From: Calditrichia bacterium
GTDB taxonomy: Bacteria > Calditrichota > Calditrichia > JAJRVZ01
Direction of reading: 5' to 3'
Assembly: GCA_963777955.1 (NCBI GenBank)
Contig: CAVZSQ010000003.1
Span: 32,001 to 96,000 of the forward strand
Length of the DNA: 64,000 bases
Shown: piece after piece, positions 4,167 to 64,000 of the stretch
Numbering within the stretch: position 1 is the first letter of the stretch
Layout: each line of letters begins with the position of its first letter
Program-made: the position numbers and the translations under genes
The notes under the pieces: model-generated
What the model saw: only the letters and a program-made list of their open reading frames with translations
What the model was told of the DNA's origin: nothing
The model's database searches: none

Positions 4167-7100
4167 ATGTCTGTTAAACACAGAAATATTTTTTCAATAG
4201 CAACTGCCTTTATTTTTTCACTGGCCACAACTATTTGTCTGCAGGCGCAAGACAGAAATATAAAATTTGAACACCTCTATGAAGGTCTGTCGCAGAGCAG
4301 CGTGCGCTGTATCCTCAAAGACAGCAAGGGGTATATGTGGTTTGGGACATACTACGGTCTGAATAAATATGATGCTTACGGTTTTAAAATCTATAAAAAT
4401 GATCAAAGGGATCCCGGATCCCTGAGCGGCAACAGAATCTCCTGTATCTATGAAGATCGCGAAGGAATTCTCTGGGTGGGCACTTATCTGGAAGGGCTCA
4501 ATGTCTATAATCGCGAGTTGGATTCATTCATTCATTACCGCAACAATCCGGCTGACAGCACCAGCCTGAGCAGCGATTTTGTCCGTACTATCTTCGAAGA
4601 CAGTAAAGGCAATTTATGGATCGGTACCTTGTACGGTGGATTAAATCTGTTCGAACGGTCCAGTAAAACCTTTAAGCACCTGCGCCAGACAAGATCAACA
4701 GAAAAAAACTCCCTGCAAAATAATGATATATTTTCGATCATTGAAGACCGCGACGGGAAATTATGGATCGGAACAAACGGCGGAGGTCTGCATTTATTTG
4801 ATCCGCAAACAAAGAAATTTACCTATTTCAAATATACCAATGACAATCCGGTAAATCTGAATGCACATAATTTCGGCAAAATTTTAAAAGAAGATAAGAG
4901 TGGCAGCAACATCTGGATCGGAACCAGCGGTGAAGGGATCTGGTCGTTCAATAAAGGAACGCGGACTTTTAAAAATTATACACGTGGCAAGGGTAAAACG
5001 GGATTGAACCATCAGATCATCACCGATCTGTACCAGGATGAAAATGGGAAACTGTGGATAGCCACCGACGGCGGCGGAATAAATATCCTGGATCCGCTAA
5101 AGGAAACATATTCCTATATGCAGAACGATCCCGATGATAAATCCAGTATCAGCAATAACCAGGTGTACACTATTTACCGCGACGATCAGGATATCGTCTG
5201 GATCGGAAATTATAACGGCGCCATTAATATTTTTAACCGGAGTCTGAGCAAGTTTGCTTTGTATACCCAGAGTAACCGCAATAAAAACAGTCTCAGTTTT
5301 AAATCGGTGCTGATCGTTCTGCGAAGATTACCAGGGGAAAATATGGATAGGAACGGATGGCGGGGGGCTGAATCTTTTCGACCGGGAAAGAAACCTGTTC
5401 AGGCATTTTATGCATGATGATAAAAATCCTAAAAGCATCGGCGGAAATGCCGTCACCAGGGTATACGAGGATAAAAGGAAAAATCTGTGGATCGGGACCT
5501 ATGCGGCCGGACTGATCCTGTACGACCGCAACAAAAACCGGTTTATCAGTCATTTAAATAATCCGGGTGATAACCGTACCATTAACAGTAACAATGTCTT
5601 TGCTATTCTGGAAGACAGCCGTAATAATCTGTGGATCGGGACCCTGGACGGGGGATTGAATCTTTTTGACCGGGATAAAAACACTTTCCGGCATTATATG
5701 CATGATGAAAAGGATGCCGGCAGCATCAGTCATAATGCGGCCATGGTGATCTATGAGGATAGGCAGGGCAATCTGTGGATCGGAACGGAAGGGGGCGGGT
5801 TAAATAATTTCAACCGGGATACCGGAAAATTCACCCGTTATATGCAGGATGCGGATAAACCGGGTACAATTCCCAATAATGAAGTAAAAGCAATTTTTGA
5901 GGATTCACAGGGTAATCTGTGGATTGGTACGGTGGGCGGGGGGTTATGTTTATTCGACAGGTCGACTGGTGATTTCAAGGCGATAACCACCGAAAATGGC
6001 CTGCCCAGCAATGCCATTCTGGCTATCATGGAAGATAATCAGCAAAATTTATGGCTGAGCACTAATAGCGGTCTGTGTAAATTTAACCCGCAGAAGAATA
6101 CTTTCCGCAGTTATGATATCAGTGACGGTCTGCAAAGCAACGAGTTTAACTACTCTGCTTTCCTTAAAAGTAAAAGCGGGGAATTATATTTTGGCGGACT
6201 GAACGGTTTCAATGTTTTTAATCCGGATGAGATTTCGGATAATGCCCACATTCCACCCGTATTCATCACCGATTTTCTGATCTTTAATAAACCGCAGAAT
6301 CTGGTCTGCGAGGGTTCACCGCTGGAAAAGCATATCACGGAAACCTGCCAGCTCGCATTGATCTTACAAGCAGTCTGTGTTTTCTTTTGAATTTGCCGCA
6401 CTTAATTTCACTTCGTCCAACAAGAACCAGTATGCCTATAAACTGGAAGGGTTTGAGGATAACTGGAATTATATCGGTAACCGCAGAACGGCTACCTATA
6501 CTAATATCAATCCCGGGGAATATGTCTTCCGGGTAAAAGCCTCCAATAATGATCGCATCTGGAATGAAACGGGCACTTATATTGCCATAAAAATAACACC
6601 CCCCTTCTGGCAAACTTGGTGGTTCCGCACGTTGTCGCTGCTGGCCATCCTGGGTCTGGCCTACAGTATCTACAGAATCCGGATCAGGTCGATTAAGTTA
6701 CAGAAAGAAAATCTGGAACAACAGGTTAAGGAACGCACCCAGGAATTGAACGAACGTAACAGCGAGTTAAACCAGGCCAAAAAAGAAACCGATGATATAT
6801 TGCATAATGTCAAAGACGGATTATTTTTGCTGGATGAAAAATGCCGCATTGAGTCTCAGTATTCTGCCGCCCTGGAAAAAATATTCGCTGAAAGCAATCT
6901 GGGCCGGAAATCGTTCCTCAAATACCTGGAGAATAAAATCGGCCAGGATATCATAGACAGTACCGCCAATTATCTGGATTTACTGTTCAGCAAAAAAATT
7001 GACGAACATATGCTGTCCGAACTGAATCCGTTGGGACAGATTGAATTGCATTTTGAAAACGGAAAAATAAACGAATCGACTTCCAAATTTCTTACTTTTG

Positions 7101-8176
7101 ATTTCCGGCGGATAGTGGAAAAGGAAAAGACCGTCAGGATCATTGCCTCGGTCAATGATATTACCGAGAAGATTACGCTGGAGAAAGACCTGGAGGAGAC
7201 CAAGGAAGCCAGCAAGCGGAAAATGGATCTGCTGCTCAGTATCCTTAATGTGGAACCGGTCATGCTGGAGGAATTCGTCAAGAGTTCGCAGGATGAAATT
7301 GACCGCGTGGGCGATGTGATCCAGGAACTGGAGCAGAAAGAAACCGCCATTGAACTGCTTGAATCGGTTTATCGTTCCGTGCACACGATTAAAGGTAATG
7401 CCAGCATGCTGGAACTGGATTTGATGGCCGACCGGGCTCATCAGGTCGAAGATATTATCTCCGATCTGCGCAAAAAGGATCAACTCAAATTTAAAGATAT
7501 CAAATCACTCCTGAGTGAAATAGACTCCATCCATTCGATTCATCAGGAAGTGAAAGATCTGATCGAACAGATCAGCAAGATTCATGAACAGTTCAGGCCA
7601 AAGCGACGGCACGAACATAATATGCTGATTAACTCGCTCAATAAACTGATTACCAACCTGGGCGATGAATATCAGAAAAAAGTCAAATTAGTCACCCAGA
7701 ATTTTAAGAGCGATCTGATTCCATATGAGCAGCGCCTGATTTTAAGGGATGTGCTGGTGCAACTGGTCAGGAATGCGATGTATCATGGACTGGAAACTTC
7801 AGGGGAAAGGCATGAAGCGGGTAAGAAAGAGACCGGCACCATCAAGATTCTCAGCATCGATAAAAAAGACCGGATCAGGATTCAGTTTGAGGATGACGGC
7901 CGCGGATTGCAATTCGATAAATTGCGGGAAAAAGCCAAAGAAAGCGGAAAATGGAGTGAAAATGAAATCAACGGCTGGAATAACCAGCAATTAGCCGAAT
8001 TGATTTATCTTCCCGGAATCACCACGGTAGATACTGCGAATATGACCGCCGGCCGGGGCTTCGGCATGGATATCGTCAGACAGAAAATAAAACGTCTCGG
8101 CGGGGAGATCAAGATCGATACCAGGAAAGGAAAATACTGCAAATTTATAATAGAACTGCCGAAGAAGGCGGCATGA
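4167..8176 (+). CDS. Membrane sensor kinase: beta-propeller (Reg_prop) repeats + Y_Y_Y + TM + PAS-like + Hpt + CheA-type HATPase; about 1335 aa after removing two +1 frameshifts (~5313, ~6361)
   Basis: Repeated EDxxGxLWIGTxGGGLN motifs; YAYKLEGFE...YTNINPGEYVFRVKASNND; PPFWQTWWF TM; HTIKGNA; LVRNAMYHGLE; DDGRG; GRGFGMD. Confidence 0.85.
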
Positions 8177-8186
8177 TCAAGGTACA

Positions 8187-8242
8187 AGAGACAAAGAGAC
8201 AAAGAGACAAAGAGACAAAGAGACAGAGAGACAAAGAGACAA
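8187..8242 (+). repeat. Tandem 8-mer (AGAGACAA) x7
   Basis: Read directly; one unit is AGAGACAG; begins just after the kinase stop codon. Confidence 0.95.
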
Positions 8243-8390
8243 AGATAAGATTAAAGATGTAAGAGTTAAGAATCAAGAGGGGTTGGAGTGTTGATGCTGA
8301 AGGTATCAGATGTTTTTAACCTTCCGTGATTCTTCATTAAAATGCGACTATGCAGGGGTTGAACAGTCCGTTACAACACAATTTTTGTTC

Positions 8391-17634: not shown

Positions 17635-18405
17635 TCAGAGATTAACTGTAATGCCTGGAGTATAATCGTGAGGTGTTGATCCCTGCCCCAGCGCACGGAT
17701 CACGGCACTGCCCACGATCACACCATCACAATACGGCGCAAATCGCCGTACATCCGCCGCTCCAAAAATACCGAAACCGATCAGCATCTTGTTCTTGCTG
17801 AGCAATCGATAAGTGCGCTGAATATCTACGAGTGTTTGTGAATTGAATTGATTCTGCATACCGGTGGTGCCGGTGATACTGACACAGTAGACAAAACCCG
17901 AACTGCGGTTGTCGATAGCCCGGATGCGCTCCTTGCCCGAAGTCGGCGTGGTTAATAAGATAATATCCAGATCTTCGGGTCGGCGTCCCCAGAAAGTGTC
18001 ATATTCCTCTAATGGTATATCCGGGATGATCAGACCGTTTATGCCGCTGTTGTAACTATCATCGATGAATTTTTTCAGACCGTAGCGATAAACAGTATTG
18101 GCATAGCCCATCAGGATCAGCGGTTTTTCGGTTTTGGAACGTATTTGTCCGGCATATTTGAAAATCTGCGACAGGTTGATTCCCGCCTCCAGCATTTTCT
18201 GCGAGGCCTGCTGGATAATCGGCCCGTCGGCAATGGGATCGCTGAAGGGGATGCCGATCTCCAGCATATCTGCCCCACGGTCCAAGACATCCACCGCCAG
18301 CGATGTGAAATCCGCCGGCAGTGGATATCCGGCTGGGAGAAAGACAGAAAGGGCTTTGCGCTGTTGTTGATTTATCAGTTCGATATACGATTTAATTTTG
18401 GACAT
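17635..18405 (-). CDS. trpA: Tryptophan synthase alpha chain (probable frameshift near the C-terminus)
   Basis: [38 protein letters not shown] at 18405 preceded by CAGGA. Confidence 0.93.
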
Positions 18406-19685
18406 TAGTCTTAATCCTGTATTAGTAATTGGTAATTGGTAATTGGTAATTTGGTTATTGGAATTTGGATTTTGGAATTTGTTATGATCAATATGCTGCA
18501 TGATGGTATTTAGATCTTTGTCTCCTCTGCCACTAATATTAACCACAACGATTTGATGGCGGGAAGTTTCGGGCATCAACTTGTCCAGATAGGCCAAGGC
18601 ATGGGCTGTTTCCAGGGCCGGCAGGATACCTTCATAGCGAGCCAGTTTCAGGGTTGCGGCCATGGCCTGTTCATCGGTGACGGCTGCATAGCGGACTCTT
18701 TTGATATCCTTGAGCAGGGAGTGCTCAGGTCCCACCCCGGGATAATCCAGTCCGGCCGAGATGGAATGGACCGCGAGCTACCTGTCCTTCTTTTGATTGC
18801 AGCAGATAACTTTTCATCCCCTGAAAAATACCGGGTGTGCCTTTGAGCAAAGTCGAACAGTGGCGTCCGGTGCGAAGTCCTGCTCCTGCCGCCTCCACCC
18901 CGATCAGATTAACTTTCCGGTCCTTGATGAAAGGGTAGAAAATACCTATGGCATTCGATCCGCCACCGACACAGGCTACAATATAATCCGGCAGGCGGTC
19001 CGCTCCCGCAGGACTGCCTGATCTGAATCCGGGTCTCCCGGCCGATTACCGACTGAAAGTTGCGCACAATCAAGGGGTAGGGATGCGGTCCCACCACCGA
19101 ACCAATGAGATAGTAAGTGTCGCGCACATTGGTTACCCAGTCGCGGATGGCCTCGTTGGTGGCATCTTTCAATGTACGGGTACCGGACTTGACCGGCCGT
19201 ACTTCGGCCCCCAGGATCTGCATGCGAAAGACGTTCGGTTTCTGGCGTTCAATATCCACTTCACCCATATAGACCACGCATTGCAGATCGAGATTGGCAC
19301 AGACTGTGGCCACGGCCACTCCGTGCTGGCCGGCTCCGGTTTCAGCGATGATCCGCTTTTTACCGATGCGTTTGGCCAGCAGGATCTGTCCCAGAGCATT
19401 ATTAAGTTTGTGGGCACCGGTGTGACACAGGTCCTCCCGCTTTAAATAGATCCGGGCCCGGCCATAATATCCGGTCAGGCGTTTAGCGTAGGTTAAAGGT
19501 GTGGGACGGCCGTTATAGGTTTTCTGTAAATACTCCAGTTCCTGGTGAAAACCCGGATCCTTGCTGGCGGTGTGATATGTTTTTTCCAGATCAGCCAGGG
19601 CCGAGATTAATGTTTCAGGTACATATTTTCCGCCAAAGTCACCGAATTTCCCACGGACATCCGGCCAGCGATAAGCAGGTTTCAT
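18406..19685 (-). CDS. trpB: Tryptophan synthase beta chain (frameshifts around 18740-19010)
   Basis: [63 protein letters not shown]. Confidence 0.93.
18423..18480 (+). repeat. Tandem heptamer TGGTAAT / TGGAATT array at the trpB-trpA junction
   Basis: About 8 imperfect units read directly. Confidence 0.9.
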
Positions 19686-19707
19686 AAATTCACCCAATTA
19701 GTTATGA

Positions 19708-20331
19708 TCAATATTCTCTTGTGCGCAATTTTTCAATCTGTTTAAAGAATGCTTTTAATTTTTCCGGATCTTTCTTGCCGGGTGTACTTTCCACCGCTGA
19801 GGACAGATCCACTCCGGCAGGTTTTACTTTTTGAAACACCTGTTGAATATTGGCAGCCGATATACCTCCGGCCAGCAGGCAGGTTGGACGCAGCCCGGCC
19901 GGGATGCAATTCCAGTTAAAACTTTCGCCAGACCCGCCGTACACATCCGCTGAATAAGTATCCAGTAAGAAATTGCAGTTTTTATATGCATTGATGACCG
20001 AGAAATCGAATTGATTGTCAACACGGAAGGCTTTGATAACCGGGTAATGTATCTCCTGAATATATTGCGGTGACTCATCGCCATGCAGTTGGGCCCCATG
20101 CAAACGGCAGGTGCGGATAATCTGATTAACCGTTTCGGCCTGTTCATTAACAAAGACACCGATCTTGAGCAGCAGCGGCGAAACCTGATTGACGATCTCT
20201 TCAACCTGCTCCGGAGGCACATAGCGTTTGCTGCCGGGGTAAAAAATAAAACCGATGGCGTCGACCCCCAGGCTCTGGCATAATAAGGCATCAGCTAAAT
20301 TGGTAATCCCGCATATTTTAATTCTCATCAT
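19708..20331 (-). CDS. trpF: Phosphoribosylanthranilate isomerase
   Basis: IKICGIT; QLHGDE; GGSGESFNW; LAGGI; VDLSSAVE. Confidence 0.95.
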   Translation of the reverse strand: MMRIKICGITNLADALLCQSLGVDAIGFIFYPGSKRYVPPEQVEEIVNQVSPLLLKIGVFVNEQAETVNQIIRTCRLHGAQLHGDESPQYIQEIHYPVIKAFRVDNQFDFSVINAYKNCNFLLDTYSADVYGGSGESFNWNCIPAGLRPTCLLAGGISAANIQQVFQKVKPAGVDLSSAVESTPGKKDPEKLKAFFKQIEKLRTREY

Positions 20332-21113
20332 TGCACCATTGTTTAAGTTCATGAAGGGCTGCACCCGGATCAGCGGCACGCAGCAAATGCCCACCGACCA
20401 GTATAGCCTGAATACCCGCCTGTTTTATATTTTCTATCTGTGATTTTTCCCGGATACCGCTTTCGGCTACTGTGACAATTTCAGCAGGTAAAAATTTTTT
20501 GATACGAATCGCCGTCTGCGGATCTACGCTTAAATCATTCAGGTTACGATTATTGATTCCGATCAAGCGGTTTTGTTGCAGATCAATTTTCTCAAGTTGT
20601 TCCTCACTGTGCAATTCGAGCAAGACATCCAGATTGACAGTTGAGGCGGCCTGGGTTAACTCAGCAATCTGGTTGGCGGATAAAATTTCTGCGATCAGCA
20701 GGATAGCATCGGCTCCGGCGGCACATGCCTCGTAAATCTGATATTCATCAAGAATAAAATCTTTGCGCAGTAAGGGGATCCGGCAGAAAGCGGCAATCCG
20801 GCGTAAATATTCTATATCGCCCTGAAAAAATTTACGATCGGTCAGTACCGATATGGCTGTGGCCTGGTTCGTTTCATAACTGCGGGCGATTTTTTCCGGA
20901 TCGAAATCGGTGCGGATCACACCGGCCGCCGGACTGGCCTTTTTAACTTCAGCGATTACGGCCAACTGCCTGGACCGGCGCAGTGCCTGGATTAGACTTC
21001 TGGTCGGCCGGTTAAAAAATCCGGCATCACGGAAATCCTCGCGGTGGTAGCGAAGATGCAGTTGCCGGATCTCTTCGTTTTTTACCTCGGACGATCTGAT
21101 CCAGAATATTCAT
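20318..21113 (-). CDS. trpC: Indole-3-glycerol phosphate synthase (+1 frameshift near 21090)
   Basis: MNILDQIV start overlapping the trpD stop; IAEVKKASP; LRKDFI; GINNRNL; VAESGI. Confidence 0.93.
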
Positions 21114-22111
21114 GCAAAATCCTTCAACTGGTTTAATTTTTTCAGTGCGGCTCCGCACAGAATAGCCTCCTCTGCTGCGGCCAGGCAATTTTTAATAGAC
21201 GGATCATACCCGGCTATCCACAGGGCCATAGCGGCATTGGCGGCAGTGACCTGAAAAACGGCATTTTTTTTCTTTTTTGCAAACAACTTCAACAGGATAT
21301 CCGCGTTCTGCTCAGGGGAATTCCCGCATATGTGCTGCGGGTCGACCGGAGCATAGCCAAAAGTAGAATGATCGATCTGGTAATGTTTAATCTGTCCATC
21401 ATATTCAAATATGTCTGTGGGTTGTGTCAGGGTGATTTCATCAAATTGATCGGCGGTACAGACAAAACACACCTTTTCCATATTCAGCATGTGTGCTGCC
21501 TGGGCCATGATATTTGCCGTATGACAATTGTATGTACCGATCATCTGGCGTTTTGTACCGGCCGGATTGGTTAATGGACCCAGTATATTGAAAATAGTTT
21601 TCATACCCAGTTCACGGCGTACCGGTGCTACATTTTTCATGGCCGGGTGATAATCAGGGGCGAAAAGAAAAGTAATGCCGATTTCATCCAGGGCGGCCTG
21701 GGCACGTTCAGGGGGCAGATTGATATTGATACCCAGGGCTTTCATCAAATCGGCGCTGCCGCATTTACTGGAAACGGAACGGTTGCCATGCTTGGCTACC
21801 GGTACTCCTGCGGCAGCGATCACAAAAGCCACGGTAGTGGATATATTAAATGTGCCTGAATTATCTCCGCCGGTTCCGCAGACATCAATAATCCTGTCCC
21901 GGCGGCTGGTAATTTTTATACTGCGTTCGCGCATGGCCTGAGCCGAGCCGGCAACTTCCTCTGCAGTTTCGCCTTTAATTTTTAAAGCGATCAACCAGGC
22001 GGCAATTTCGGCCTGGTTGGCCGAACCATCCATGATATGACCCATACTGTTCATCGATTCTTCAAAGGTAAGATTCTGACCGCCAATTATCTTTTCCAGA
22101 TTTTCTTTCAT
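21110..22111 (-). CDS. trpD: Anthranilate phosphoribosyltransferase
   Basis: DVCGTGGD; TFNIST; KHGNRSVSSKCGSAD; FNILGPLTNP. Confidence 0.96.
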   Translation of the reverse strand: MKENLEKIIGGQNLTFEESMNSMGHIMDGSANQAEIAAWLIALKIKGETAEEVAGSAQAMRERSIKITSRRDRIIDVCGTGGDNSGTFNISTTVAFVIAAAGVPVAKHGNRSVSSKCGSADLMKALGININLPPERAQAALDEIGITFLFAPDYHPAMKNVAPVRRELGMKTIFNILGPLTNPAGTKRQMIGTYNCHTANIMAQAAHMLNMEKVCFVCTADQFDEITLTQPTDIFEYDGQIKHYQIDHSTFGYAPVDPQHICGNSPEQNADILLKLFAKKKKNAVFQVTAANAAMALWIAGYDPSIKNCLAAAEEAILCGAALKKLNQLKDFA

Positions 22112-22677
22112 ATGACCTCCAGCCAGTTTTGAATTATTTTGCTCCCTTCCGGGGTTAAAAAAGACTCAGGATGAAATTGAATCCCTTCCACGGCGTATTG
22201 TTTATGCCGTACTCCCATAATGATGCCATCCTCGGTTTCGGCGCTTATTTCCAGTTTAGTGCTGAGCGTACTGCGTTCGATAGCGAGTGAATGGTAGCGG
22301 GTAGCCTGGAAATTCTGCCGGATATTTTTAAAGATAGTTTTGCCGTCATGACGGATCAGCGAGGTTTTGCCATGCATCAGGTGTGGTGCCCGGATTACCC
22401 TGGAACCATAAGTAATGGCGATACTCTGATGTCCCAGACAGACTCCCAGAATAGGAACATCCCGGCCCATGTCTTCAATTACCTTCAGGCAAATATTGGA
22501 ATCCTCCGGACGTCCGGGACCGGGGGAAATAAGGATGCGCTCCGGTTGCAGACAGCGGATTTCACTGAGGGTGATGCGGTCGTTTCGGCATACGGTAATA
22601 TCCGCTGAAAAACGACCGACCAATTGCACCAGGTTAAAAGTAAATGAATCGTAGTTATCGATCACCAGGATCTTCAT
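22108..22677 (-). CDS. trpG: Anthranilate synthase component II (glutamine amidotransferase)
   Basis: IDNYDSFTFNL; SPGPGRP; GVCLGHQ; QFHPES. Confidence 0.95.
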   Translation of the reverse strand: MKILVIDNYDSFTFNLVQLVGRFSADITVCRNDRITLSEIRCLQPERILISPGPGRPEDSNICLKVIEDMGRDVPILGVCLGHQSIAITYGSRVIRAPHLMHGKTSLIRHDGKTIFKNIRQNFQATRYHSLAIERSTLSTKLEISAETEDGIIMGVRHKQYAVEGIQFHPESFLTPEGSKIIQNWLEVI

Positions 22678-24133
22678 CAATCTCCTCTGCATATTTCAGC
22701 GCATTTACCAGTACGGCTGATTTATTTTCGATTTCTTTAATCTCCAGGTGCGGCTGGCTGTCAGCCACTATCCCGGCGCCCGCCTGCCAGTAAACGGAAT
22801 CAGGCCTGGCAAACAGGGTGCGGATGGCGATGCACATATCCAGGTTCCCGCTGAAATCGATGTAGCCCACGGCACCTCCGTATACATTGCGGCTGCAGTG
22901 CTCATATTGATCGATCAGTTGTATGGCGCGGATCTTAGGGGCACCGGTGAGTGTTCCGGCCGGAAAGCCGGCCATTAATGCATCGATGCAATCCTGGTCA
23001 TCACGTAATTCCCCTTCCACCCTGGAAACAATATGCATGACATGTGAATACCTTTGAATTTTCATTTCCTCACTGAGACGGATAGAATCAAATTTGCAGA
23101 TCCGGCCCAGATCATTGCGGGCCAGGTCCACCAGCATGACATGCTCGGCACGTTCCTTGGGATCGGAGAGTAAATCGGCTTCGAGTTGGCGGTCTTCGCT
23201 TTCGTCGCGCCCGCGGCGACGGGTTCCGGCAATGGGTAAAATGGTAACCTGGCGGTTGCTGACTTTTACCAAATCTTCCGGAGAAGTGCCGATAATGGTA
23301 AGATCAGCGGCAAATTCCATATAGTACATATATGGCGAAGGATTAATAATACGCAGGGCCCGGTAGACATTCAGCAGATCACCATGATACGTCGCGTTAA
23401 AACGCCGGGATAAAACGATCTGGAATATATCCCCGGCCCGGATATGTTCCTTGGCCTGTTCGATTGTGGCGGCAAAGTCTGTATCCGGTTCCCGGTCAGT
23501 CGTGGTTTGAAAACGGAAATCCGATTGATGGGTTACCGGTCTGGCCAGTTCGCGATGCAATTGTTGTAAATCAGATCGGGCTGATTCATAAGCCCTGGCC
23601 AGATCAGGCTGTTCAGCGGTAAATACATTTTTGATCAGGATCAGCTGATGTTTGTAATGATCAAAGGCCACCACGGTGGTGTAAACGGCAAAGATCGCAT
23701 CGGGAGTATCAATCTCCTGCCGGCGCTTAAAATTTATCACATCTTCGATCAGGGCAATATTTTCATAACCCAGGTATCCTACTATACCGCCGGTGAATTC
23801 GGGCAATTCTTCGACCGGCGGCCGGCTGAAAGCGGCAACCTCCTGCTTGAGATAGGCGAACAGATTGCCGTGCAGCTGTTCCTGCCGGTCACCCTGGATA
23901 ATCCGGATTTCCTGCTCACGGTTACTGATAATTTTTATCGGGTCCCGGCCCACAAATGAATAGCGGGCCAGCCGGCCGATGCCTTCAACGGATTCCAGCA
24001 GAAAACAGTAATTATTTTTCTGGCGCAGTTTAAGATATGCCAGCACCGGGGTTAACAGATCCGCAGTGATCTTTTCGTAGACCGGGACCACACTGTATTT
24101 TTTGGCAAGTTTTTTGAAATTTTCAAAATCCAT
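22655..24133 (-). CDS. trpE: Anthranilate synthase component I
   Basis: LLES; NPSPYMY; IAGTRRRG; EHVMLVDLARND; FPAGTLTGAPK. Confidence 0.96.
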   Translation of the reverse strand: MDFENFKKLAKKYSVVPVYEKITADLLTPVLAYLKLRQKNNYCFLLESVEGIGRLARYSFVGRDPIKIISNREQEIRIIQGDRQEQLHGNLFAYLKQEVAAFSRPPVEELPEFTGGIVGYLGYENIALIEDVINFKRRQEIDTPDAIFAVYTTVVAFDHYKHQLILIKNVFTAEQPDLARAYESARSDLQQLHRELARPVTHQSDFRFQTTTDREPDTDFAATIEQAKEHIRAGDIFQIVLSRRFNATYHGDLLNVYRALRIINPSPYMYYMEFAADLTIIGTSPEDLVKVSNRQVTILPIAGTRRRGRDESEDRQLEADLLSDPKERAEHVMLVDLARNDLGRICKFDSIRLSEEMKIQRYSHVMHIVSRVEGELRDDQDCIDALMAGFPAGTLTGAPKIRAIQLIDQYEHCSRNVYGGAVGYIDFSGNLDMCIAIRTLFARPDSVYWQAGAGIVADSQPHLEIKEIENKSAVLVNALKYAEEIDEDPGDR

Positions 24134-29239: not shown

Positions 29240-29350
29240 ATAGTTGCTGTCTGCAGTACTCCTTGATTGTTCCTCATAGTTTTGCTTAATAGTCCGAATA
29301 TTATATGTAGAAGATTTTCTATTTCTATTGGTCAATTGCCGGGGGAGAAA

Positions 29351-32300
29351 ATGAGATCTGTCTTTATGAGAAATCATTTAATAATCAGCATTTTGATTCT
29401 ATGTTTTATTTCAGTGGATCATAGCCAGGCGGCCAGGAATTATAAACCGGAAATTGCGGATCCGTTGTTTGAATCATGGCGCTGGCAGCATTATGCTTAC
29501 CTTAGTGGAAAAGGTATTCGTTGTTTTACCGAAGACAAAGAGCATAATACCTGGTTTGGCGTGGATAAAGGGGTGATCAGGTATAACGGTTTTACCTGGA
29601 TAACCTATACACCGCAGGATGGACTATTAGGCGCTCCGGTTGAGTGTTTATATACAGCCAATGACGGCAGCATCTATGCCGGTACTGCTGAGGGCTTGAG
29701 CAGATTTCAGGATGGTAACTGGAAGACTGTGTTCCCTTTGTCGGGAGATAGTCTGTTCCATGTCACTTGCATAAAACAACTTTCTGATGGCAGTATGGCC
29801 ATCGGTACCGATAGAGGTTTATTGCACCTGAAAGACGGCCGCTGCACTCTTTTTGGCACGCAACAAACTATAACTAATATGAGTAAGGTTTTAACTGAAA
29901 TCGGATACTGCCAGGTACCTGAGGCGGCGGCGTTTAATAATACACTTAAAGTATACGATCTGTTTCAGGATAACCAGGATAGAATCTGGTTATCCATGGG
30001 TGATGATATGGATGAAGCGGGAAAAATTTTACAATTTTCGCTGCCGGTTGAAAATCTTCCGGTTTTAAAGTCTTATACTATTTTTGCCAGGGAAACGGGA
30101 TATAAACTGGGTTCGAGAATGCATTTTTTGCAATCGTTGGATAAAAAAATATGGATCATCAGCGAGGACTTCGATATTGGTGTATATGCTTATGACCAGC
30201 AAGGCTGGACCTACGTGCAGTTAAGTGCGCAATTCGGGGGTGATGATCTGCACACCAGTATTATTTCAAGCGGAGACGGAACCGTTTGGATCGGCGGTCT
30301 GGCGAAATTATATGCTTATAAGCAAAATAAATGGTATATGTATAAGGCACCTGATGTTTCTTTACCCATTTCCCGCCTGTTGTTGCTGGAATCCAGCGAT
30401 GGGCATTTATGGATCGCCGGCAAACAAAATGAGGTATATAAAATCGACTATGCCGGTACGTCCTGGATGACCTGCCGGAATCTGAATTTCCAATGTGAAA
30501 CCATAGATGAAACACGCTGGTTTCTTTCGGTCGATGATCGGGTCGTCCGGCAGCAGGGAACTGCCTGGACATCCTACGGGCAGGAAGATGGCCTGATGCA
30601 GTATCCAGTTTGTATCATAGTAACTTCTAAAGGACAGACTATGGGCAGCCGGTAGTCAGGGTGAAGTGGCAGCGACTGCTTACTTTGAAAATGAAAAATG
30701 GCACCGGCAACTTCACCCGGATCTGTCCTGGGGTGTAGATTACCGGGCAGTTTTTGAATCTTTGGATGGTTCCATCTGGTTTGGTTGCGCAGTAGATATC
30801 CACAAAGAAAAAGGACAAAAAGCCGGAGCCCTGCGTTTGAAAAATCCCACCAGCGATATAAAGGAATGGATCCACTATACTTCTGCTGATGGTATTGACC
30901 AGGAGAACGCCTACGGCCTGGCGCAATCTCCTGATGGTCAGATATGGATGGGTGGGTCATCGTTATTCCGTTTCGATGGTGAAAAATGGCACCGTCAAGC
31001 CGAACCGCAACAGTTAGCAGAACGAGTTGATATCGTCCACAGCCGGTTCAGAAGCAAACTGTGGATTGGTTCCCGTTTTTATGGCATTTTTTCGTTTGAC
31101 GGGCAGGAATGGCAACAATATAAAATTGAAGATGGACTACTCAGTAACACGATAATCAGCATCTATGCGCAAACTGACAGCAACGTCTGGGTGGCCACCG
31201 ACAGGGATATCTGCCGCTTCGACGGGCGCAACTGGACTACCGATCTGTTCCCGGATGTTCTGACCTTCACCCGTGAGGGTGGTTCGCTGCAGATGTCAAA
31301 GGATGGCGCCCTGTGGATAAATATTTCTCTGCGCGAATGGAAGCGCCGGGCTTTAAAAAGTGTGACTTTAACTGCTGAGGCGCTGAATAAATTTTTTACC
31401 GTCAAGTATAAGCCGGATATGCGGCCGCCCGAAACGGATATTAAGATTTTTACAGCGGAAGTCGACCAGTCGGGGAATACGCTGATCAGTTGGATCGGTC
31501 ATGATGCCTGGGATGTTACAGCCCAGGAGGAGTTGACTTATTCTTACCGGCTGAATAATGATGATTGGAGTCCGTTCCAGGCCGAGACCCATCACACCTT
31601 TACCGCCTTGAAATCGGGTGCGTACCGGTTCGAGGTGAGAGCGCGCGATAAGGATTTCAATGTGGATCCCACGGCGGCGATGGTGGAGTTTAAGGTTATG
31701 CTGCCGGTCTATTTAAGAGCGTGGTTCATTGTCTTGATGGCCGTCTTGCTCAGCATCATCGGATATCTGACCACGCGCCTGATCCAGAGAAATGTCAATC
31801 TGAACAGGGCAAATTTTAAACTGCAAGTCGCGAAGAAAGAGACCGATGATATTCTGCATAATGTCGAAGAAGGTTTATTTTTACTGGATCCGGCCTATAC
31901 CATCGGTTCGCAATATTCGACGATTCTGGAATCAATTTTTAATCAAAAAGCATTGGCGCAGATCAACTTCGTCGAATTGCTGCGGAACAAAATTACCGGC
32001 TCTGAACATGAAACCGTCAAACATTTCCTTGGCGTTATTTTCACCCAGGATATCGATCCGGAATTACTGGATGACCTGAATCCCCTGTCGGAAATCAAAT
32101 TGGATTTCGGAGATTATAAGGAACCTATATATTTATCATTTAAGTTCAGGAGGGTGGATGCTGATCCGGCCGCAGCCAAAGAACTTATTGTGACGGTGCG
32201 GGACATCAGCGAGCAGGTTGTGCTGGAACAAAAATTGCGGGCATCCGAAGAGGAATCGCAACGGCAAATGGATTGGCTGTTATGTATTCTGCACGTTGAA

Positions 32301-33221
32301 CCGTCTTTGCTGCAGGAATTTATCTCGACAGCCCAGCAGGAAATTGATCATATAGCGGTCACTCTGGAGCGGGGTAGAAAATCAGCAAGTATAAATTTTA
32401 CGGAGCTGTTAACCCAGGTATACCGCTCCATGCATCTGTTAAAAGGTAATGCCAGCCTGCTGGCCATCAAGTTTTTTGCCGATCAGGCTCATCAGTTTGA
32501 ATCCAAAATATCGGAATTACAGCAAAACCAGAAACTGAAAAACGAAGATCTGATACCGCTTAAAGACGAACTGGAAAAGATCAAGATAATGCTGAACGAG
32601 GTGAATAAATTAATCGATAAAATCAGCCAGATTCATAACTACATGCGGCCCAAACGCGAGCATGAACTTAAGATGCTGATGCAGTCGTTAAATAACCTGG
32701 TTTTAAGATCAGTTCATGAAACGGGCAAGAAAATACATCTCAATACGGATAAATTTGAAGGGAATATCATCCCCCATCAGTATAAATTGCTGTTGAAGGA
32801 GATCCTGATCCAACTGATTCGTAATTCCATTGCTCATGGCATCGAAGATCCTGAAGAACGGTTGCGGCTGAACAAGCCGGAGGCAGGAACCATTGAAATA
32901 TCTACTGTAAAAAGGGATGATCAATTCTGCCTGATTGTCCGTGATGATGGCCGTGGAATACAGCTGGACAAATTAAAACAGGCTGTACAAAAATCAGGCA
33001 AATGGACCGAAACAGAAATAAACAACTGGAGTGATAAAGAGATCGCTCAAACCATTTTTCTTTCAGGCGTAACAACATCCGCTCAGGCAGATATGTTGTC
33101 GGGCCGCGGGATCGGGCTGGATGCCATTAAGGAAAAGATTGAGAAACACCAGGGGAAAATCGAACTGGATTATGAAACAGGAAAATATTGTAAATTTGAA
33201 GTGTGTTTGAAATTAAACTAG
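29351..33221 (+). CDS. Second beta-propeller + Y_Y_Y + TM + PAS-like + Hpt + CheA-type HATPase sensor kinase (about 1289 aa; +1 frameshift near 30638)
   Basis: DGL/WFG propeller repeats; YSYRLN...LKSGAYRFEVRARD; HLLKGNA; LIRNSIAHGIE; DDGRG; GRGIGLD. Confidence 0.85.
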
Positions 33222-40985: not shown

Positions 40986-43900
40986 ATGTCGGTGGGTAAA
41001 TACCGGATTTTAATAGTATCTATCTTGTGTTCCATGTTGTTTATAAAAATTCTGGTCGCCGGAACGACAGGTAAGATTGCCGGCCGGATTATGGAAAAAG
41101 ATTCGGGTAATCCCTTACCCGGAGTTAATGTCGTGGTCAAAGGAACTTATCTGGGTGCAGCCACGGATGTGGACGGTTATTATGCCATTCTTTCTGTTCC
41201 GCCCGGCATACAGAGTGTGGAAGCGAGCATGATTGGTTATGCAACCGTAACAGTAAACGAAGTGCGGGTGCAGATCGATCAAACTGCTCCGGTCAATATC
41301 GAAATGGTTTCGGAAGTAATCGAAGCAGCGAGTGTGGTCATCATCGCCGATAGAAACCTGGTAAAACCGGATGTCTCCACCAGCGTTTCAGCAGTACGAC
41401 CCGAGGAAATAGAAGCATTACCGGTAACCAATATTAATGATGTAGTAAGCCTGCAAGCCGGTGTTGAAAAGGGATTGGTTGTCAGGGGCGGTGGTGCGGA
41501 TGAACTGCTGTTTCAGGTGGATGGTGTCACTTTCCGCGATCCCAGAAATAATCAGCCTATCTCGGCTATTCCTTTGACTTCCATTCAGGAATTGTCCATT
41601 GAACGTGGAGGCTTTAATGCTGAATACGGACAGGTACGTTCCGGTATAGTCAACACGGTTCAGAAGGAAGGGGATGTTGCCAGCTATGCAGGTATGATGA
41701 CTGCGCGATATAGTCCTCCGCAGCAGAAGCATTTCGGCATATCTGTTTTCGATCCTAATTCCATGTGGAACCGGCCTTATCTGGATCCGGCTGTATGCTG
41801 GGTCGGTACCGCCAATGGATCATGGGACGAATATACCCAGCGGCAGTATCCGCAATTTGACGGCTGGGATGCAATTTCCAAGGGTTTGTTGGAAGATGAC
41901 GATCCCAACAATGATCTTTCCCCCGCTGCCTGTAAGCGTTACTACGAATGGACCCATCGCAGGCGGCCGATAACCGATGAACCTGATTATGATCTTGATG
42001 GAAGTTTTAGCGGACCTGTACCTTTTATCGGTAAGAAGCTGGGAAATTTGCGTTTTCTGGCCAGTTACCGGGTTGAAAGAGAGATGCTGCTGATTCCGCT
42101 CAGCCGGGCTGATTATAAGGATTATGTTTTTTCATTTAAAATAAATTCCGATATCAGCAGCAAAATGAAACTGATGATTACTTCGACAATGGGTAAATCG
42201 TATAATGTACCCATTAATCAGAATGATCAGCAATTCTGGAATCTTACTTTTGGTATAAATGGCACCAATGTCTGGAATCCTACAGATTTTATGCGGACTC
42301 CGCTGCAAATTGCAGCTGTTACCAATGAGCAACGACCCTCGAGAATTTTTTCCAATTCCTGGTATAGTCAGTCGGAAGTCAGTCATTTCACCTTTGCGGC
42401 CAAACTTACTAACTTTTTAAGTGCTTCGACCTACTACGAAGCAAGTTTTGAACATGTTTCCCGTGACTATCTGACCGGTCCTGTCCGGAACCGTGATCTG
42501 ACCAGGCGTTATGAAATCACCCCGGGTTATTTTGTGGATGAAGCTCCTTATGGCTATGATCCAAATCCGGATGCCGACCTTGCGGGAATGTTCTTCGGCG
42601 GTCACAGTTCCACTGCCCGTGATTCCAGTGATATTCAATCTTATGTTCTTAAAGGAGATCTGACCAGTCAGCTCAACAAGCAACATCTGGTTAAAACCGG
42701 AATTGAGTTTTCCTATTATAATCTCAATCTGGATTATGGCTTGCTTAATGTATATTTTGGCGATGTGAACTGGGTAAAAGAGAAGTGGAATCCTTACCGC
42801 CTGTCGATGTATGCCCAGGACAAGATCGAGGCTCTGGGCTTTATCGCCAATATAGGTGTAAGATTGGATCTGAGTAATCCGAATACGGACTGGGTGAATG
42901 TGGATCCTTTCAATAAAGGCTACTATTCAACCAGTTATAGTACGGATTCCACCTATGCCAGAGAAAAAGCCAAGGTCGATGTCGCCTTCAGTCCGCGGCT
43001 GGGTATATCGCATCCCATTACTGAGAATTCAAAGTTGTATTTTAATTATGGCCATTTTAAGGAATTGCCCGCTTATGAAGAAATTTTCCGGTTAGGCCGG
43101 GGCTCAGCGGGTAGTATGCGCAATAATGGCGATCCCAATTTAGAGCAGGCCAGGACTATCTCCTATGAATTGGGCTATGATCATGTCATAGCTACTGACT
43201 ATCTGATCCAGCTGGCTGCTTTTTATCATGATATCACCAGTCAGCAGGGTTTTACCCAGTATCTGAGTGACAGAAAGGGTATCGGTTATTTTGCCGCTAA
43301 TAATAACAATTACCGGGATATCCGCGGATTCGAACTTACCCTCAGAAAAAATTACGGTACCTGGATACGTGGATTTGCTAATTATACTTATATGAATGTG
43401 ACTCAGGGAGCTTTTGGCAAGCAAACCATTGATGAAGATCCCTATCGGCAGCGATTGATTGATCAGAACACCCCATTATTATATCAGCAAAAACCTGTAC
43501 CGCAACCCCGGGCCAATGCAAGTTTAATGTTTTTAACCCCGACGGAATTTGGACCGGAATTACTGGGTATCAAACCGGCAGCCGATTGGTCGCTGAATAT
43601 ACTGGCGCAGTGGCAAGCCGGTGCCTGGTTTACCTATCAGAAATATGTGATTGCCGAAGAGGTCAACAACGTGCAGACAACCGATATCTTCAATTTTGAT
43701 CTGCGCTTGAATAAATCTTTCGATTTTAAAGCATTAAGTGTGACCCTGTTCATGCAGGTAGAAAATGCTTTCAATTTCAAAAGAATGTCCGGGGAGAGTT
43801 TTTATAATACTTTCGATTTCCAGTACTATATGGAATCGCTGCATCTGCCGGAGAATCGTGCTTATGATAATATTCCCGGTGATGACCGGGCCGGTGATTA

Positions 43901-44180
43901 TCGCAAACCCGGCGTGGCCTATCAACCAATCGAACAGAGTGGAAACGTAAATGGCATACCTGCTGCTAATATCAGATATGGTGTGATTTATTATGACGGG
44001 CCGACTAAAAAATACATGTATTTTCCGGAGGGCGCCACTATCCCTGTTGAAGTAGAAAAAGGCCGGATGCAAAAGATTCTGGATGATAAAGCCTATATCG
44101 ATATGCCCAACAACACTTCCTTTACGTTTCTGAATCCCAGACAGTTTTTCTATGGGATTACGTTAACCTTTAAATTATAA
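40986..44180 (+). CDS. TonB-dependent receptor with an N-terminal carboxypeptidase-regulatory-like domain
   Basis: GTTGKIAG...LPGVNV...GAATDVDG; plug VRGG...VDG; GGFNAEYG; FSPRLGISHP; NPRQFFYG C-terminal strand. Confidence 0.9.
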   Translation: MSVGKYRILIVSILCSMLFIKILVAGTTGKIAGRIMEKDSGNPLPGVNVVVKGTYLGAATDVDGYYAILSVPPGIQSVEASMIGYATVTVNEVRVQIDQTAPVNIEMVSEVIEAASVVIIADRNLVKPDVSTSVSAVRPEEIEALPVTNINDVVSLQAGVEKGLVVRGGGADELLFQVDGVTFRDPRNNQPISAIPLTSIQELSIERGGFNAEYGQVRSGIVNTVQKEGDVASYAGMMTARYSPPQQKHFGISVFDPNSMWNRPYLDPAVCWVGTANGSWDEYTQRQYPQFDGWDAISKGLLEDDDPNNDLSPAACKRYYEWTHRRRPITDEPDYDLDGSFSGPVPFIGKKLGNLRFLASYRVEREMLLIPLSRADYKDYVFSFKINSDISSKMKLMITSTMGKSYNVPINQNDQQFWNLTFGINGTNVWNPTDFMRTPLQIAAVTNEQRPSRIFSNSWYSQSEVSHFTFAAKLTNFLSASTYYEASFEHVSRDYLTGPVRNRDLTRRYEITPGYFVDEAPYGYDPNPDADLAGMFFGGHSSTARDSSDIQSYVLKGDLTSQLNKQHLVKTGIEFSYYNLNLDYGLLNVYFGDVNWVKEKWNPYRLSMYAQDKIEALGFIANIGVRLDLSNPNTDWVNVDPFNKGYYSTSYSTDSTYAREKAKVDVAFSPRLGISHPITENSKLYFNYGHFKELPAYEEIFRLGRGSAGSMRNNGDPNLEQARTISYELGYDHVIATDYLIQLAAFYHDITSQQGFTQYLSDRKGIGYFAANNNNYRDIRGFELTLRKNYGTWIRGFANYTYMNVTQGAFGKQTIDEDPYRQRLIDQNTPLLYQQKPVPQPRANASLMFLTPTEFGPELLGIKPAADWSLNILAQWQAGAWFTYQKYVIAEEVNNVQTTDIFNFDLRLNKSFDFKALSVTLFMQVENAFNFKRMSGESFYNTFDFQYYMESLHLPENRAYDNIPGDDRAGDYRKPGVAYQPIEQSGNVNGIPAANIRYGVIYYDGPTKKYMYFPEGATIPVEVEKGRMQKILDDKAYIDMPNNTSFTFLNPRQFFYGITLTFKL

Positions 44181-44214
44181 ATAGAATATTCTGATAATAC
44201 GAGGTATTAGTCAC

Positions 44215-46387
44215 ATGGTTAAAAGATATTGGTCAAGAGCGATTATCATCATCATAATGTTGTATGCAGCCGGTATCGATGATTCCCAGTGTTTATATGC
44301 CCAGGTTACCGGCCCGCAGGAGGTCAGATGGATCTGGGTGGGTTCCTTACGGCACTGGTTTTCCAGTGGTGGCGCTGAAATTGAATACGGCCGGCGCAGC
44401 AGAGCATTTCTGAAGCACCGATCAGATCGATGGATTAATGTGGCCGGCGCAGTATAGTAACCAGGATGTCAATTGCGGTAAAAGTTTATGGATCGGCACC
44501 ACAAATTTTGCTGATCCCATCGATGGACGGACTTTCCCCTGCAAGGTTGTCAAAGCCGGCCGGCCATTTATGTACATCAATACCGAAATATTCCCTGCGG
44601 AGTTTGCCCTGATTGCCCGGTCTGAACGTCCTGCAGTGCTGGTTGACCAGATGAGTTCTTCGGATCTTGATTATAATGATGAGGTTGATCAGATTGATCC
44701 GAATCTGGAAGCCGACCGTATGATTTACAATACTATTAATACTACAGTCGGAGTGACGGTTACCAGAAAAGTGCGGGCTTTCAGCCAGCAGTACCATGAT
44801 AATTATTTTATTTACGAATATGTTTTTAAAAATACGGGTATAATTGATAATACAGGAGTACAGAAATTATCCGCTGACCTGACCGGTGTTATTTTTCACT
44901 TCCAGTACCGTTATGCCTTTGCCGGGGAATCCTACCGGGGCGGCTGGTCGCCTTCCGGTGTGAGTTGGGGAAGAAATGCTATCAATGATGTAGTGGGACA
45001 GGATGCCGCCCATACTCTGCCGCCGCCCAACGATTTCCGTGCAATCTTTGCTTACTACGGGCCAACGCCCAGTGCAACAAGTGTAGCCGCTGATATTGGC
45101 TTACCCAATCGTCAATCGGGCTATATAATGGCCGGTACAAAATTTGCCGGAGTCATTGTACTGCATGCCGATGCTTCACCCCAGGATCATAGCGACGATC
45201 CGGCTCAACCTGCTACAACTCAATTTATGGGTTCCGACCAGGATGGGCAGTCAGTCAATCAATACGATGCTTCGTTAATGGAAGAGTCGTATAGTTTCAT
45301 GTCGGCAGGTCATCCGTCGCAAACTCATGCCGACCGGATCGGCAAAGATGCGAACGGCTGGCCGAGCGGCATTGCCGATATTCCGGTAGGGTTGACTGAT
45401 CCGGGCGGTTATTCCTCCGCAATGGGATTCGGTCCTTATACCATGGCCATCGGTGATAGCATCAGAATTGTGCTGGCTGAGGCGATTGAGGGACTGGATA
45501 AAGATCGTTTATTGAATAAAGAGATAAGCAGAAAGTGGTTTACCAAAACCCCGCCCTATGTTCTGCCTGATCAAAGCACTACTACCGATGCTGATATCTA
45601 CAAAAACACCTGGGTATTTAAAGGTAAAGACTGGTTATTTGAATCTTTTCGCAGGGCCAGAGCGAATTATAACAGCGGATACCAGATCGCCCGGCCGCCG
45701 GATCCTCCCCAACAGTTCACCATTAATTCCAGCGGCAATAAAATATCTCTGACCTGGTCTAATAATGCCGAAGCGGAAGCGACTTTTGCCGGGTATCAGA
45801 TATTCCGTGCCGAAGGCAGACCGGATACGACTTACGATCTGATCTTTTCCTGCGACAAAAACAACGTCGTGAATAATTTTGACGACAGAACCGCCCGCCG
45901 GGGATTTACTTACTATTACTATATACAAACCAAAGATGACGGTTCGACCAATACTGATGCTGCCCTGAATCCCGTCGGTCCGCTGGTCAGCAGCAGATTT
46001 TACACGCAAACCAATCGCGAAGCCTATTTAACCCGCCCTGCCGGTACCAGCCTCAGCGATATACGGGTAGTGCCCAATCCCTATAATATCAGCATGAAAG
46101 ATCTGCAATTTGGACAGGATATTCCTGACCGGCTCGCTTTTTATGGCCTGCCCCCATTTTGCAGGATAAAAATCTATACGGAAACCGGAGATCTGATTGA
46201 AACGATCGATCATACCAACGGCAGTGGCGATGACTACTGGCACTCTTTGACTTCATCCAACCAGCTGGTGGTCAGTGGTTTATATATAGCATATTTTGAA
46301 GTTACTAAAGATACCTACAACGAGCAGGGTAAATTAATTTTCAAGAAGGGTGATAATATTTTCCGAAAATTTATAATAATTCGATGA
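44215..46387 (+). CDS. Large exported partner protein with an Fn3-like region and a CTD-like C-terminus (about 723 aa; +1 frameshift near 44415)
   Basis: Signal peptide; GFGPY; LTW...GYQIFR...YYYY; VVPNPY...LP...IYTETG...SGLYI...KFIIIR*. Confidence 0.8.
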
Positions 46388-46408
46388 TAAAAGCAGTGGG
46401 AGAACGAA

Positions 46409-47158: not shown

Positions 47159-47197
47159 TTGTGCTAAAAATGAAATTCCAAAAGGAGAATATATAAA

Positions 47198-57700: not shown

Positions 57701-58177
57701 GATCTGCTGAAACTATCGCGGATAACCCGGGGCAGCATAACCAAAGAGCGGATTGATCTGAGCAGGATTGCGGAAAATATAATTAACCGGTATAAACAGG
57801 AGGAACCGCAGCGGAAAGTCAAATTTGTCATAGCGGAAGGATTAAGTGCCGACGGCGATGCGAATTTGCTGAGGGTGGCGCTGGAGAATCTGTTGCACAA
57901 TGCCTGGAAGTTTACTTCAAAAAAAGAAAATACAAAGATCGAGTTTGGTCAGGAACAAGGCCAGGACGGGGTTATCTTTTTTATCAGAGATAATGGTATT
58001 GGTTTTGATATGAAATACAGGTCAAAACTTTTTGAGCCCTTTCAGCGGTTGCAGACGGAATATCTGGGTATGGGTATCGGCTTAGCCACGGTTGAACGGA
58101 TCATTAACCGTCACGGCGGACGCATCTGGGCTGAGGGCAAGGTAGATGAAGGTGCGGTTTTTTATTTTAGTTTATAA
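54774..58177 (+). CDS. Beta-propeller/Y_Y_Y sensor histidine kinase, class I HisKA + HATPase (frameshifts near 54835 and 57168)
   Basis: FEHISAQEGLSQ; WIGTWGGG repeats; YTNLDPGQYTFRVKASNND; SVSHDLRAP; NAWKF; DNGIGF; GIGLA. Confidence 0.87.
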
Positions 58178-58185
58178 GGTCTAGA

Positions 58186-62147: not shown

Positions 62148-62150
62148 ACA

Positions 62151-63756: not shown

Positions 63757-63999
63757 TCAGACCGCCGGCAGGATTATCTCGAACTCACAAAATTTATCCT
63801 TGTTAAACGAAACACGGATTTCACCCTGATGTTCCTGAATGCGGTGTCTGACCCCATCCATACCTACACCCCGGCCGGCGACCATATCGACTTTGTCGGA
63901 AGTAGTGATGCCTGAGGCGAAGATCAATTCAGCTATTTGCTGATCATTCCAGTTATTAATTTCTTCGTCCTGCCATTTTCCGCTTTGAATGGCTTTTTG
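63757..63999 (-). CDS. C-terminus of a third CheA-like kinase paralogue (partial; not in the ORF track)
   Basis: QKAIQSGKWQDEEINNWNDQQIAELIFASGITTSDKVDMVAGRGVGMDGVRHRIQEHQGEIRVSFNKDKFCEFEIILPAV*. Confidence 0.88.
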   Translation of the reverse strand, partial: QKAIQSGKWQDEEINNWNDQQIAELIFASGITTSDKVDMVAGRGVGMDGVRHRIQEHQGEIRVSFNKDKFCEFEIILPAV

Positions 64000-64000
64000 T

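Follow-up and report, generated by a model that had tools for sequence, protein, structure and literature searches.

A Reg_prop–Y_Y_Y sensor on a probable class III histidine kinase in a Calditrichia bacterium

The window studied here is a 64,000-nucleotide stretch of contig C3 from the genome assembly of a Calditrichia bacterium (G000, to which contigs C13 and C15 also belong; G001 is a congener, and other G numbers are relatives). Its gene at 4167–8176 encodes a periplasmic beta-propeller sensor, a membrane helix and a CheA-type kinase core in one polypeptide, and judging from this layout we assign the product with high confidence to the class III histidine kinases. Somewhat less firmly, we favour an account in which this membrane sensor kinase would carry an oligosaccharide signal through His1072 to a free-standing CheY whose gene lies at another place in the genome. 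Class III kinases, as reportedly defined by Wuichet and Zhulin in 2010 and by Adebali et al. in 2017, are sensor-bearing Hpt–ATPase proteins without a dimerisation domain; the same studies reportedly name CheX and a single receiver as their partners, in many cases together with a short soluble chemoreceptor, and report that they always co-occur with pilT. The kinase design, a sensor with Hpt and a CheA-like ATPase and without P3 or CheW, is thus already described as a class, and a preliminary description of this DNA, which presented the design as undescribed, has to be corrected for the kinase part, whose family is already characterised.

Matches to Reg_prop, Y_Y_Y, Hpt and HATPase_c all exceeded the Pfam cut-offs (Table 1), Reg_prop in the first and second of three successive frames and the other domains in the third, and the start codon ATG at 4167 is preceded by a GGGGAG site. 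The motifs lie at 7370–7402 (YRSVHTIKGNA), 7763–7789 (LVRNAMYHG), 7892–7906 (DDGRG) and 8051–8071 (GRGFGMD), and the stop codon (8174–8176) comes right behind the ATPase, as the preliminary description had said; indeed, Pfam, hydropathy, motif positions and the structural model placed all features that it had named where it had put them. No Pfam match to HisKA, H-kinase_dim, CheW or Response_reg was found in the gene at E ≤ 0.1, and these blanks are meaningful because the true CheA of the same genome (on C13) matched H-kinase_dim, CheW and a receiver in the same library. Hence CheW, HisKA and receiver are absent as claimed, and the phosphotransfer domain is Hpt and not HisKA. An AlphaFold model of the C-terminal 500 residues, made from a 106-row alignment (mean predicted local distance difference test score (pLDDT) 90, predicted template modelling score (pTM) 0.56), begins with a long helix and a five-strand PAS-type fold; a linker helix leads on to the four-helix Hpt bundle, and the ATPase comes last, with no helical hairpin separating Hpt from ATPase. 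The region that had been called PAS-like is blank in Pfam yet has a PAS-type fold in the model. Isolated CheA P4 chains matched the modelled ATPase at target template modelling (TM) scores of 0.79–0.90. The Hpt histidine is conserved in 104 of the 106 aligned rows, and the N box and G1 aspartate in all of them. Pfam rows such as Ntox33, LRRK2 and BBS7 were read as propeller cross-matches, and identity with PorZ was rejected (NCBIfam scores of 91 and 98 where 260 is required), the propeller alone being shared.

This layout was compared with the features of class III. The sensor lies N-terminal to Hpt, and Hpt stands directly before the CheA-type ATPase without a dimerisation domain, according to Pfam, the model and the distance of 129 amino acids (aa) from the histidine to the N box. 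No CheW domain follows: among the best 120 of 2225 matches in a search of proteins of 1058–3020 aa, at most 46 residues lie behind the core in the 111 homologues that matched it whole. CheX and a single-domain receiver are present in the system, beside paralogues on C15 and not beside the gene. Many class III operons reportedly include a soluble chemoreceptor, an accessory trait outside the protein definition; here it is lacking, the sole match of G000 to a methyl-accepting chemotaxis protein (MCP) being in the C13 Che cluster, and G000 also lacks pilT. Because pilT is a genomic correlate and not part of the protein definition, its absence weakens a role as pilus modulator, not the kinase class. 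The product has neither the P3 and P5/CheW domains and sensor-free architecture of CheA nor the HisKA, HATPase, REC and AraC array behind a sensor of hybrid two-component systems. Since all CheAs in the survey passages of PMC10782961 carry P1, P3, P4 and P5 and none a sensor, the gene product is not a CheA, and the best NCBIfam models, which are CheA models, score far below their cut-offs (158 of 950 and 102 of 793 needed). The distance from the histidine to the N box is 127–129 aa in all 15 Calditrichia rows scored, 310–638 in four CheAs and mostly 162–197 in proteobacterial class III kinases (102–137 in five of 23 rows). A spacing of 127–129 aa leaves no room for P2/P3, and its constancy suggests a compact Hpt–ATPase unit unlike the tethered P1 of CheA. 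Having no CheW or P3 domain, the protein is not apparently built for an MCP/CheW array, and the bypass of MCP and CheW proposed earlier, with receptor and CheA-type kinase in one polypeptide, agrees with this.

In a 59-row ATPase tree, for which class III reference rows were picked by architecture and operon and not by a published list, three groups appeared: Calditrichia (support 77/96), CheA (92/95), and proteobacterial kinases with Cellvibrionaceae (96/98). The label ‘class II’ of the preliminary description is not supported, given an ATPase placed away from the CheA group and a layout that matches class III. The Calditrichia ATPases form a group of their own, however, and the best free tree unites CheA with the proteobacterial class III group, weakly (88/77); hence ‘class III’ may be a grade. 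A single clade of class III ATPases was not recovered in free trees and was not rejected either (approximately unbiased (AU) test, p 0.57, 27 rows). Monophyly of Calditrichia and Cellvibrionaceae ATPases cost 22 log units, yet the test did not reject it (p 0.063). The root is unsure because Calditrichia rows supplied the ATPase profile and the outgroup of class I kinases aligned poorly.

G000 carries nine class III cores. Four of them have propeller inputs, GAF, PAS, REC and ROK-GAF inputs occur once each, and one core is input-less; the histidine and ATP motifs are intact in seven of the nine. The ROK-GAF copy (G000:C15:303032-305941) lacks the Hpt histidine; G001, G006 and G051 also have class III cores with similar N-termini. 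On C15, a CheY, a propeller kinase, the ROK-GAF kinase, a second CheY, CheX and the input-less copy form one run. We compared 28 loci from 26 genomes, chosen for adjacency of kinase, CheY, CheX and pseudokinase: CheX is present in 23, and these hold a propeller kinase in 18 cases and the input-less copy behind CheX in 22. In the 19 full-length input-less copies, the G1 aspartate is always replaced by histidine and the G2 box is always gone, and five keep the Hpt histidine. The G1 aspartate of CheA binds adenine, and its replacement makes the input-less copies likely pseudokinases, which have been kept across the class Calditrichia. A full propeller sensor also occurs in G006 on a class III core without Hpt histidine and G2 box (L013:13475-17434), as a sensor pseudokinase.

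The proteins of this CheY–CheX–pseudokinase cluster are likely partners of the orphan gene in the window, and a CheY of C15 has a reasonably good claim to be its phosphotransfer partner. From the domain order, catalytic motifs and gene context that are observed, we infer every biochemical step that follows. Bacteroides hybrid sensors signal ligand through a dimer mechanism, and by analogy a periplasmic oligosaccharide would bind the propeller and shift the sensor dimer; the signal would pass the membrane helix, the coiled coil and the PAS domain, as in class I kinases with the same sensor, and the ATPase would phosphorylate its own Hpt at His1072. One of the two C15 CheY proteins would accept the phosphate and CheX would remove it, and up to seven active class III kinases would thereby be pooled into one signal. 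Without a DNA-binding domain, CheY would act through protein contact, possibly with the co-encoded pseudokinase as adaptor, in a function other than twitching or swimming; that the pseudokinase is the target of CheY is a tentative suggestion. The ROK, GAF, PAS and REC inputs of the paralogues, and one paralogue at a GH5/GH94 locus, were counted in favour of this account.

Some observations count against it. No response regulator or carbohydrate family adjoins the gene, so partner and ligand have to be read from the paralogues, and G000 has 50 receiver-domain matches, ten of them short, any of which could be the partner. Another receiver, for example the single-domain regulator at 61659–62147 or the hybrid kinase at 62151–63746, might instead take the phosphate and lead to transcription of sugar-use genes. 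The orphan position of the gene and the many receivers fit this alternative, only 14 bases separate the end of the third propeller paralogue from the hybrid kinase, with two class I propeller kinases close by, and Reg_prop–Y_Y_Y sensors control polysaccharide loci in Bacteroides (relevant passages of PMC3243724). However, a propeller kinase adjoins CheY and CheX in 18 loci across the class, and the window regulator stands behind class I kinases on the strand opposite to the third paralogue, so we consider a partner of this kind unlikely. It is still less probable that the kinase is a side input to the conventional chemosensory cluster on C13, which exists and has two receiver domains, since a CheY and a CheX already go with the class III kinases and no class III gene lies in that cluster. 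The one MCP match and two CheW matches of G000 are all on a contig other than that of the window, in line with the earlier statement that the window holds no MCP or cheW gene.

The gene region consists of three successive open frames with a +1 offset at each step, which the preliminary description had taken for two +1 frameshifts; alignment to a 1335-aa database protein resolves these into single extra bases. This protein (93% identical; 11 members, 91–93% identical) spans the frames end to end without gap or overlap, with residues 1–382, 383–731 and 732–1335 in turn, and G001 has one base fewer at each shift. Four public runs were compared with the gene, which gave one contig across each break, both without the extra base and both at low depth. 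Moreover, trpB and pyruvate phosphate dikinase are also frame-broken in the assembly, and several genes have one-base insertions relative to G001. The two extra bases are thus most likely assembly errors, as far as can be told from these alignments, and we hold it very probable that there is a single intact gene. A point against this is that none of the public runs contains half of the sampled words of the gene, so the source reads of the assembly are outside the comparison; among the listed runs that contain the words, there is no RNA run. Hence a true pseudogene in which both insertions are real would fit the assembled sequence as it stands, but the frame breaks in other genes, the absence of both bases from related contigs and the intact catalytic motifs make this very improbable. 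Both breaks lie at GATC, and a motif-linked error or programmed event was dropped as other assembly breaks lie in different contexts. Separate propeller and kinase genes were rejected, Y_Y_Y, membrane helix and kinase being in one frame and the orthologues continuous. In the trp operon of the window (17635–24133), trpB is split by a frameshift, which marks the assembly as rich in one-base errors.

According to a summary of class III kinases in PMC6501615, these occur independently of chemotaxis and are linked to the pilus marker pilT. G000 (91.8% complete) has no match to the pilT family, to T2SSE over cut-off, to PilC/T2SSF or to flagellin, with positive controls. The flanks of the type IV pilus locus of a relative (G003) are separated by ∼65 bases without any N in G000 and by ∼70 in G001; on the strength of these adjoining flanks, an assembly gap behind the missing pilT was rejected at this type of site in the two genomes that the comparison covers (the flank gene was not found in G002, G004, G006 and G008). 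A PilM_2 match in G000 (E 1e-7), in a 411-codon frame, probably belongs to a different protein with an actin fold, since the genes at the PilM position of three relatives match nothing in G000. Of 61 Calditrichia genomes searched, 46 have a pilT-family match over cut-off, and nine (G000 and eight of 60 relatives) have no pilus-type ATPase better than E 1e-5, no PilC and no flagellin. All nine have class III matches, eight of them four or more; among the other 52 genomes, 29 have any and one has four or more. These figures count matches and not genes; completeness is <80% in two of the nine genomes, and about two lineages stand behind the nine (seven in the family of the window, two in another), so this is a pattern and not a statistical result. 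The expansion in pilus-less genomes runs against the reported link between class III and pilT. Since G000 lacks the pili that class III kinases were proposed to control, the output of the kinase is likely a different one. The reported pilT co-occurrence (summary in PMC6501615) and the 46 genomes with pilT would point to a relic of type IV pilus control whose target is gone, but this is highly improbable, because pilus-less genomes carry more class III kinases, not fewer, and seven of the nine G000 copies keep their histidine and ATP motifs.

Candidate outputs are two other systems on C13, namely an MglA/MglB-type operon (L107:10387-15500) with a PAS kinase, a receiver, a DUF4388 protein, a HAMP protein and an MglB/MglA-like pair of roadblock protein and small GTPase, and the single Che cluster of G000 (L108:6255-15853) with ParA, a receiver, CheW, MCP and a multi-Hpt CheA-REC, which is split by a frame break. 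The gliding marker GldM had no match in a search where the controls did not match either. Some Calditrichia carry a second, longer PilT-like family (f2 and f6, frames of ∼410–455 codons) besides the canonical one, and Caldithrix abyssi carries flagellar and pilus genes according to the relevant passages of PMC5317091.

The sensor appears to have a history separate from that of the kinase. In a tree of 33 sensor segments, a single clade of the 18 class III sensors was rejected (AU p 0.007), and the sensor of an orthologue clustered with a class I sensor (support 95), although the class I rows P0115–P0120 were retrieved with the kinase gene as query, which favours this pairing. These trees suggest that the propeller was joined to class III kinases more than once, and the module has probably been swapped several times between kinase classes; such swapping suggests one transmission route via membrane helix and coiled coil. 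Four Bacteroides sensors of the Reg_prop–Y_Y_Y family bind oligosaccharides by isothermal titration calorimetry (passages on ligand binding in PMC3243724), and by this analogy oligosaccharide sensing by the gene product is plausible, a glycan being slightly favoured as its ligand. The window also holds a second class III kinase and the end of a third, neither of which the preliminary description mentions. The second heads a locus in which genes for a sodium:solute symporter, GH5, GH94, a TonB-dependent receptor and a CBM9 protein come directly after it, and it is the best candidate for ligand identification.

Among the same best 120 homologues, one of the 111 with a whole kinase core has a ROK input, which leaves 110 with propeller and core; the other nine are three partial matches and six class I kinases, and HisKA, CheW, H-kinase_dim and receiver occur in none of the first 114. 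The close homologues that are named belong to Calditrichia, and the named distant ones (24–32% identity) to Pseudomonadota of the Cellvibrionaceae type, among them Marinagarivorans and Thalassocella. The same core occurs with 4HB, HAMP, GAF, PAS or 7TMR inputs in Burkholderiales and SAR324, and look-alike protein clusters give candidate further holders in Spirochaetota, Bdellovibrionota and Myxococcota. A contig scan with the full-length homologue P0084 gave mostly propeller-only matches, with the whole protein matched at two of 78 loci. Loci of Burkholderia YI23, Ideonella and Ralstonia hold a class III kinase, a short chemoreceptor-type gene and a hypothetical gene, with a receiver in two of the three, and one Thalassocella locus combines a pair of propeller kinases with a receiver, a short MCP and a CheX-domain protein. 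The class III kinase operon of the Ideonella plasmid NZ_CP088082.1 is adjoined by genes annotated as a diversity-generating retroelement (avd, reverse transcriptases; L098:9954-12740). A full-text literature search found no paper on a propeller-sensor Hpt/CheA-type kinase or on chemosensory kinases of Calditrichota; the defining class III papers were outside this search and may list the architecture. Relative to described class III systems, three features may be new, namely propellers as input, a pseudokinase that is conserved and the expansion in genomes that lack pili.

Table 1. Features of the kinase gene and related loci (window positions unless a contig is named)
Feature	Position	Strand	Evidence or remark
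Whole gene, Reg_prop–Y_Y_Y sensor class III histidine kinase (probable)	4167..8176	+	1335 aa with two extra bases set aside
Signal-peptide-like N-terminus, end approximate	4167..4247	+	hydropathy peak, residues 7–26
Beta-propeller region, segment 1	4248..5312	+	Reg_prop E 3.4e-46, 6 stretches
Extra base, first +1 shift, likely assembly error	5313	+	absent from G001 and one related Sequence Read Archive contig
Beta-propeller region, segment 2, and start of Y_Y_Y region	5314..6359	+	Reg_prop E 1.8e-41, 6 stretches
Extra base, second +1 shift, likely assembly error	6360/6361	+	absent from a 271-base contig (3 other differences) and G001
Y_Y_Y domain	6404..6595	+	Pfam E 4.5e-17
Single transmembrane helix	6623..6685	+	hydropathy
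Long signalling helix, coiled-coil type	6677..6808	+	predicted model, helix 2–45
PAS-fold domain, predicted, without Pfam match	6809..7159	+	model, five-strand PAS-type fold
Hpt four-helix bundle	7256..7591	+	Pfam Hpt E 3.1e-9; His codon 7382–7384 = His1072
CheA-type ATPase, N, G1 and G2 boxes intact, protein ends there	7604..8161	+	HATPase_c E 7.1e-13
Second propeller–Y_Y_Y class III kinase, divergent propeller	29267..33221	+	one frame break near 30640
Third propeller class III kinase, C-terminal end	63760..64000	-	intact 1352-codon frame, G000:C3:95760-99815
Input-less PAS–Hpt–ATPase pseudokinase (likely) behind CheX	G000:C15:300535-301974		
Empty site of G003-type type IV pilus locus	G000:C15:179229-179295		same in G001

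The gene neighbours are SnoaL, OmpA, a zinc peptidase and proteins without assignment. Just 3′ of the stop codon (8180–8245) lies a short purine-rich tandem repeat with units like AGAGACAA, at which many unrelated contigs pile up. At 40986–48220, several genes that match no Pfam family at E 1e-5 come after a TonB-dependent receptor, an arrangement that recalls a glycan uptake locus of non-Bacteroides type, and at 54952–63746 tandem class I Reg_prop–Y_Y_Y–HisKA kinases (the first frame-broken), a single-domain receiver and a REC–HisKA–REC hybrid converge on the third class III gene.

Taken further, these systems could form an array-free chemosensory network of Calditrichia, in which receptor-kinases with propeller, ROK, GAF, PAS or REC inputs, at most about ten of them, replace the MCP–CheW–CheA array, converge on CheY/CheX and a pseudokinase, expand where pili and flagella are lost, and report sugar to a non-motility process, with the MglA/MglB-type module as one candidate; we offer this as a speculative, rather doubtful proposal. 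The pilus-control function proposed for class III kinases reportedly rests on pilT co-occurrence, and such a network, if true, would overturn that hypothesis. What class III systems control becomes testable in genomes with many of these kinases, no pili, tractable sensor ligands and defined candidate partners, and purified proteins could show how a kinase without a dimerisation domain receives a transmembrane signal.

Several known systems share parts of this architecture. The ATPase is nearest to CheA P4 by sequence (E 8.5e-38) and by fold, and the P1 histidine motif is of CheA type; however, the product lacks P3 and P5/CheW and has a sensor, which CheA lacks (as surveyed in the passages of PMC10782961). 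With Bacteroides hybrid sensors and class I Reg_prop–Y_Y_Y–HisKA kinases it shares the periplasmic module and the membrane topology, whereas it has no HisKA, receiver or AraC domain and does not lie in a polysaccharide locus. BguR, described in bioRxiv 10.64898/2026.01.10.698779 as a one-component regulator that has no phosphorylation domains and activates transcription, is alike in that a sensor of hybrid two-component type is reused with another output. Kinases of class I and of class III alike make use of this one sensor type. The closest likeness is to class III itself, in the sensor, Hpt and CheA-type ATPase without dimerisation or CheW domain and in the CheX and single-domain receiver of the system, and Cellvibrionaceae-type members have the PAS-like region in common with it (24–27% identity over 455–472 residues). 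It differs from known class III systems in its propeller–Y_Y_Y input, its separate ATPase group, the nine copies in G000 and the absence of pilT there, and in carrying a likely pseudokinase where proteobacterial operons carry a short soluble chemoreceptor.

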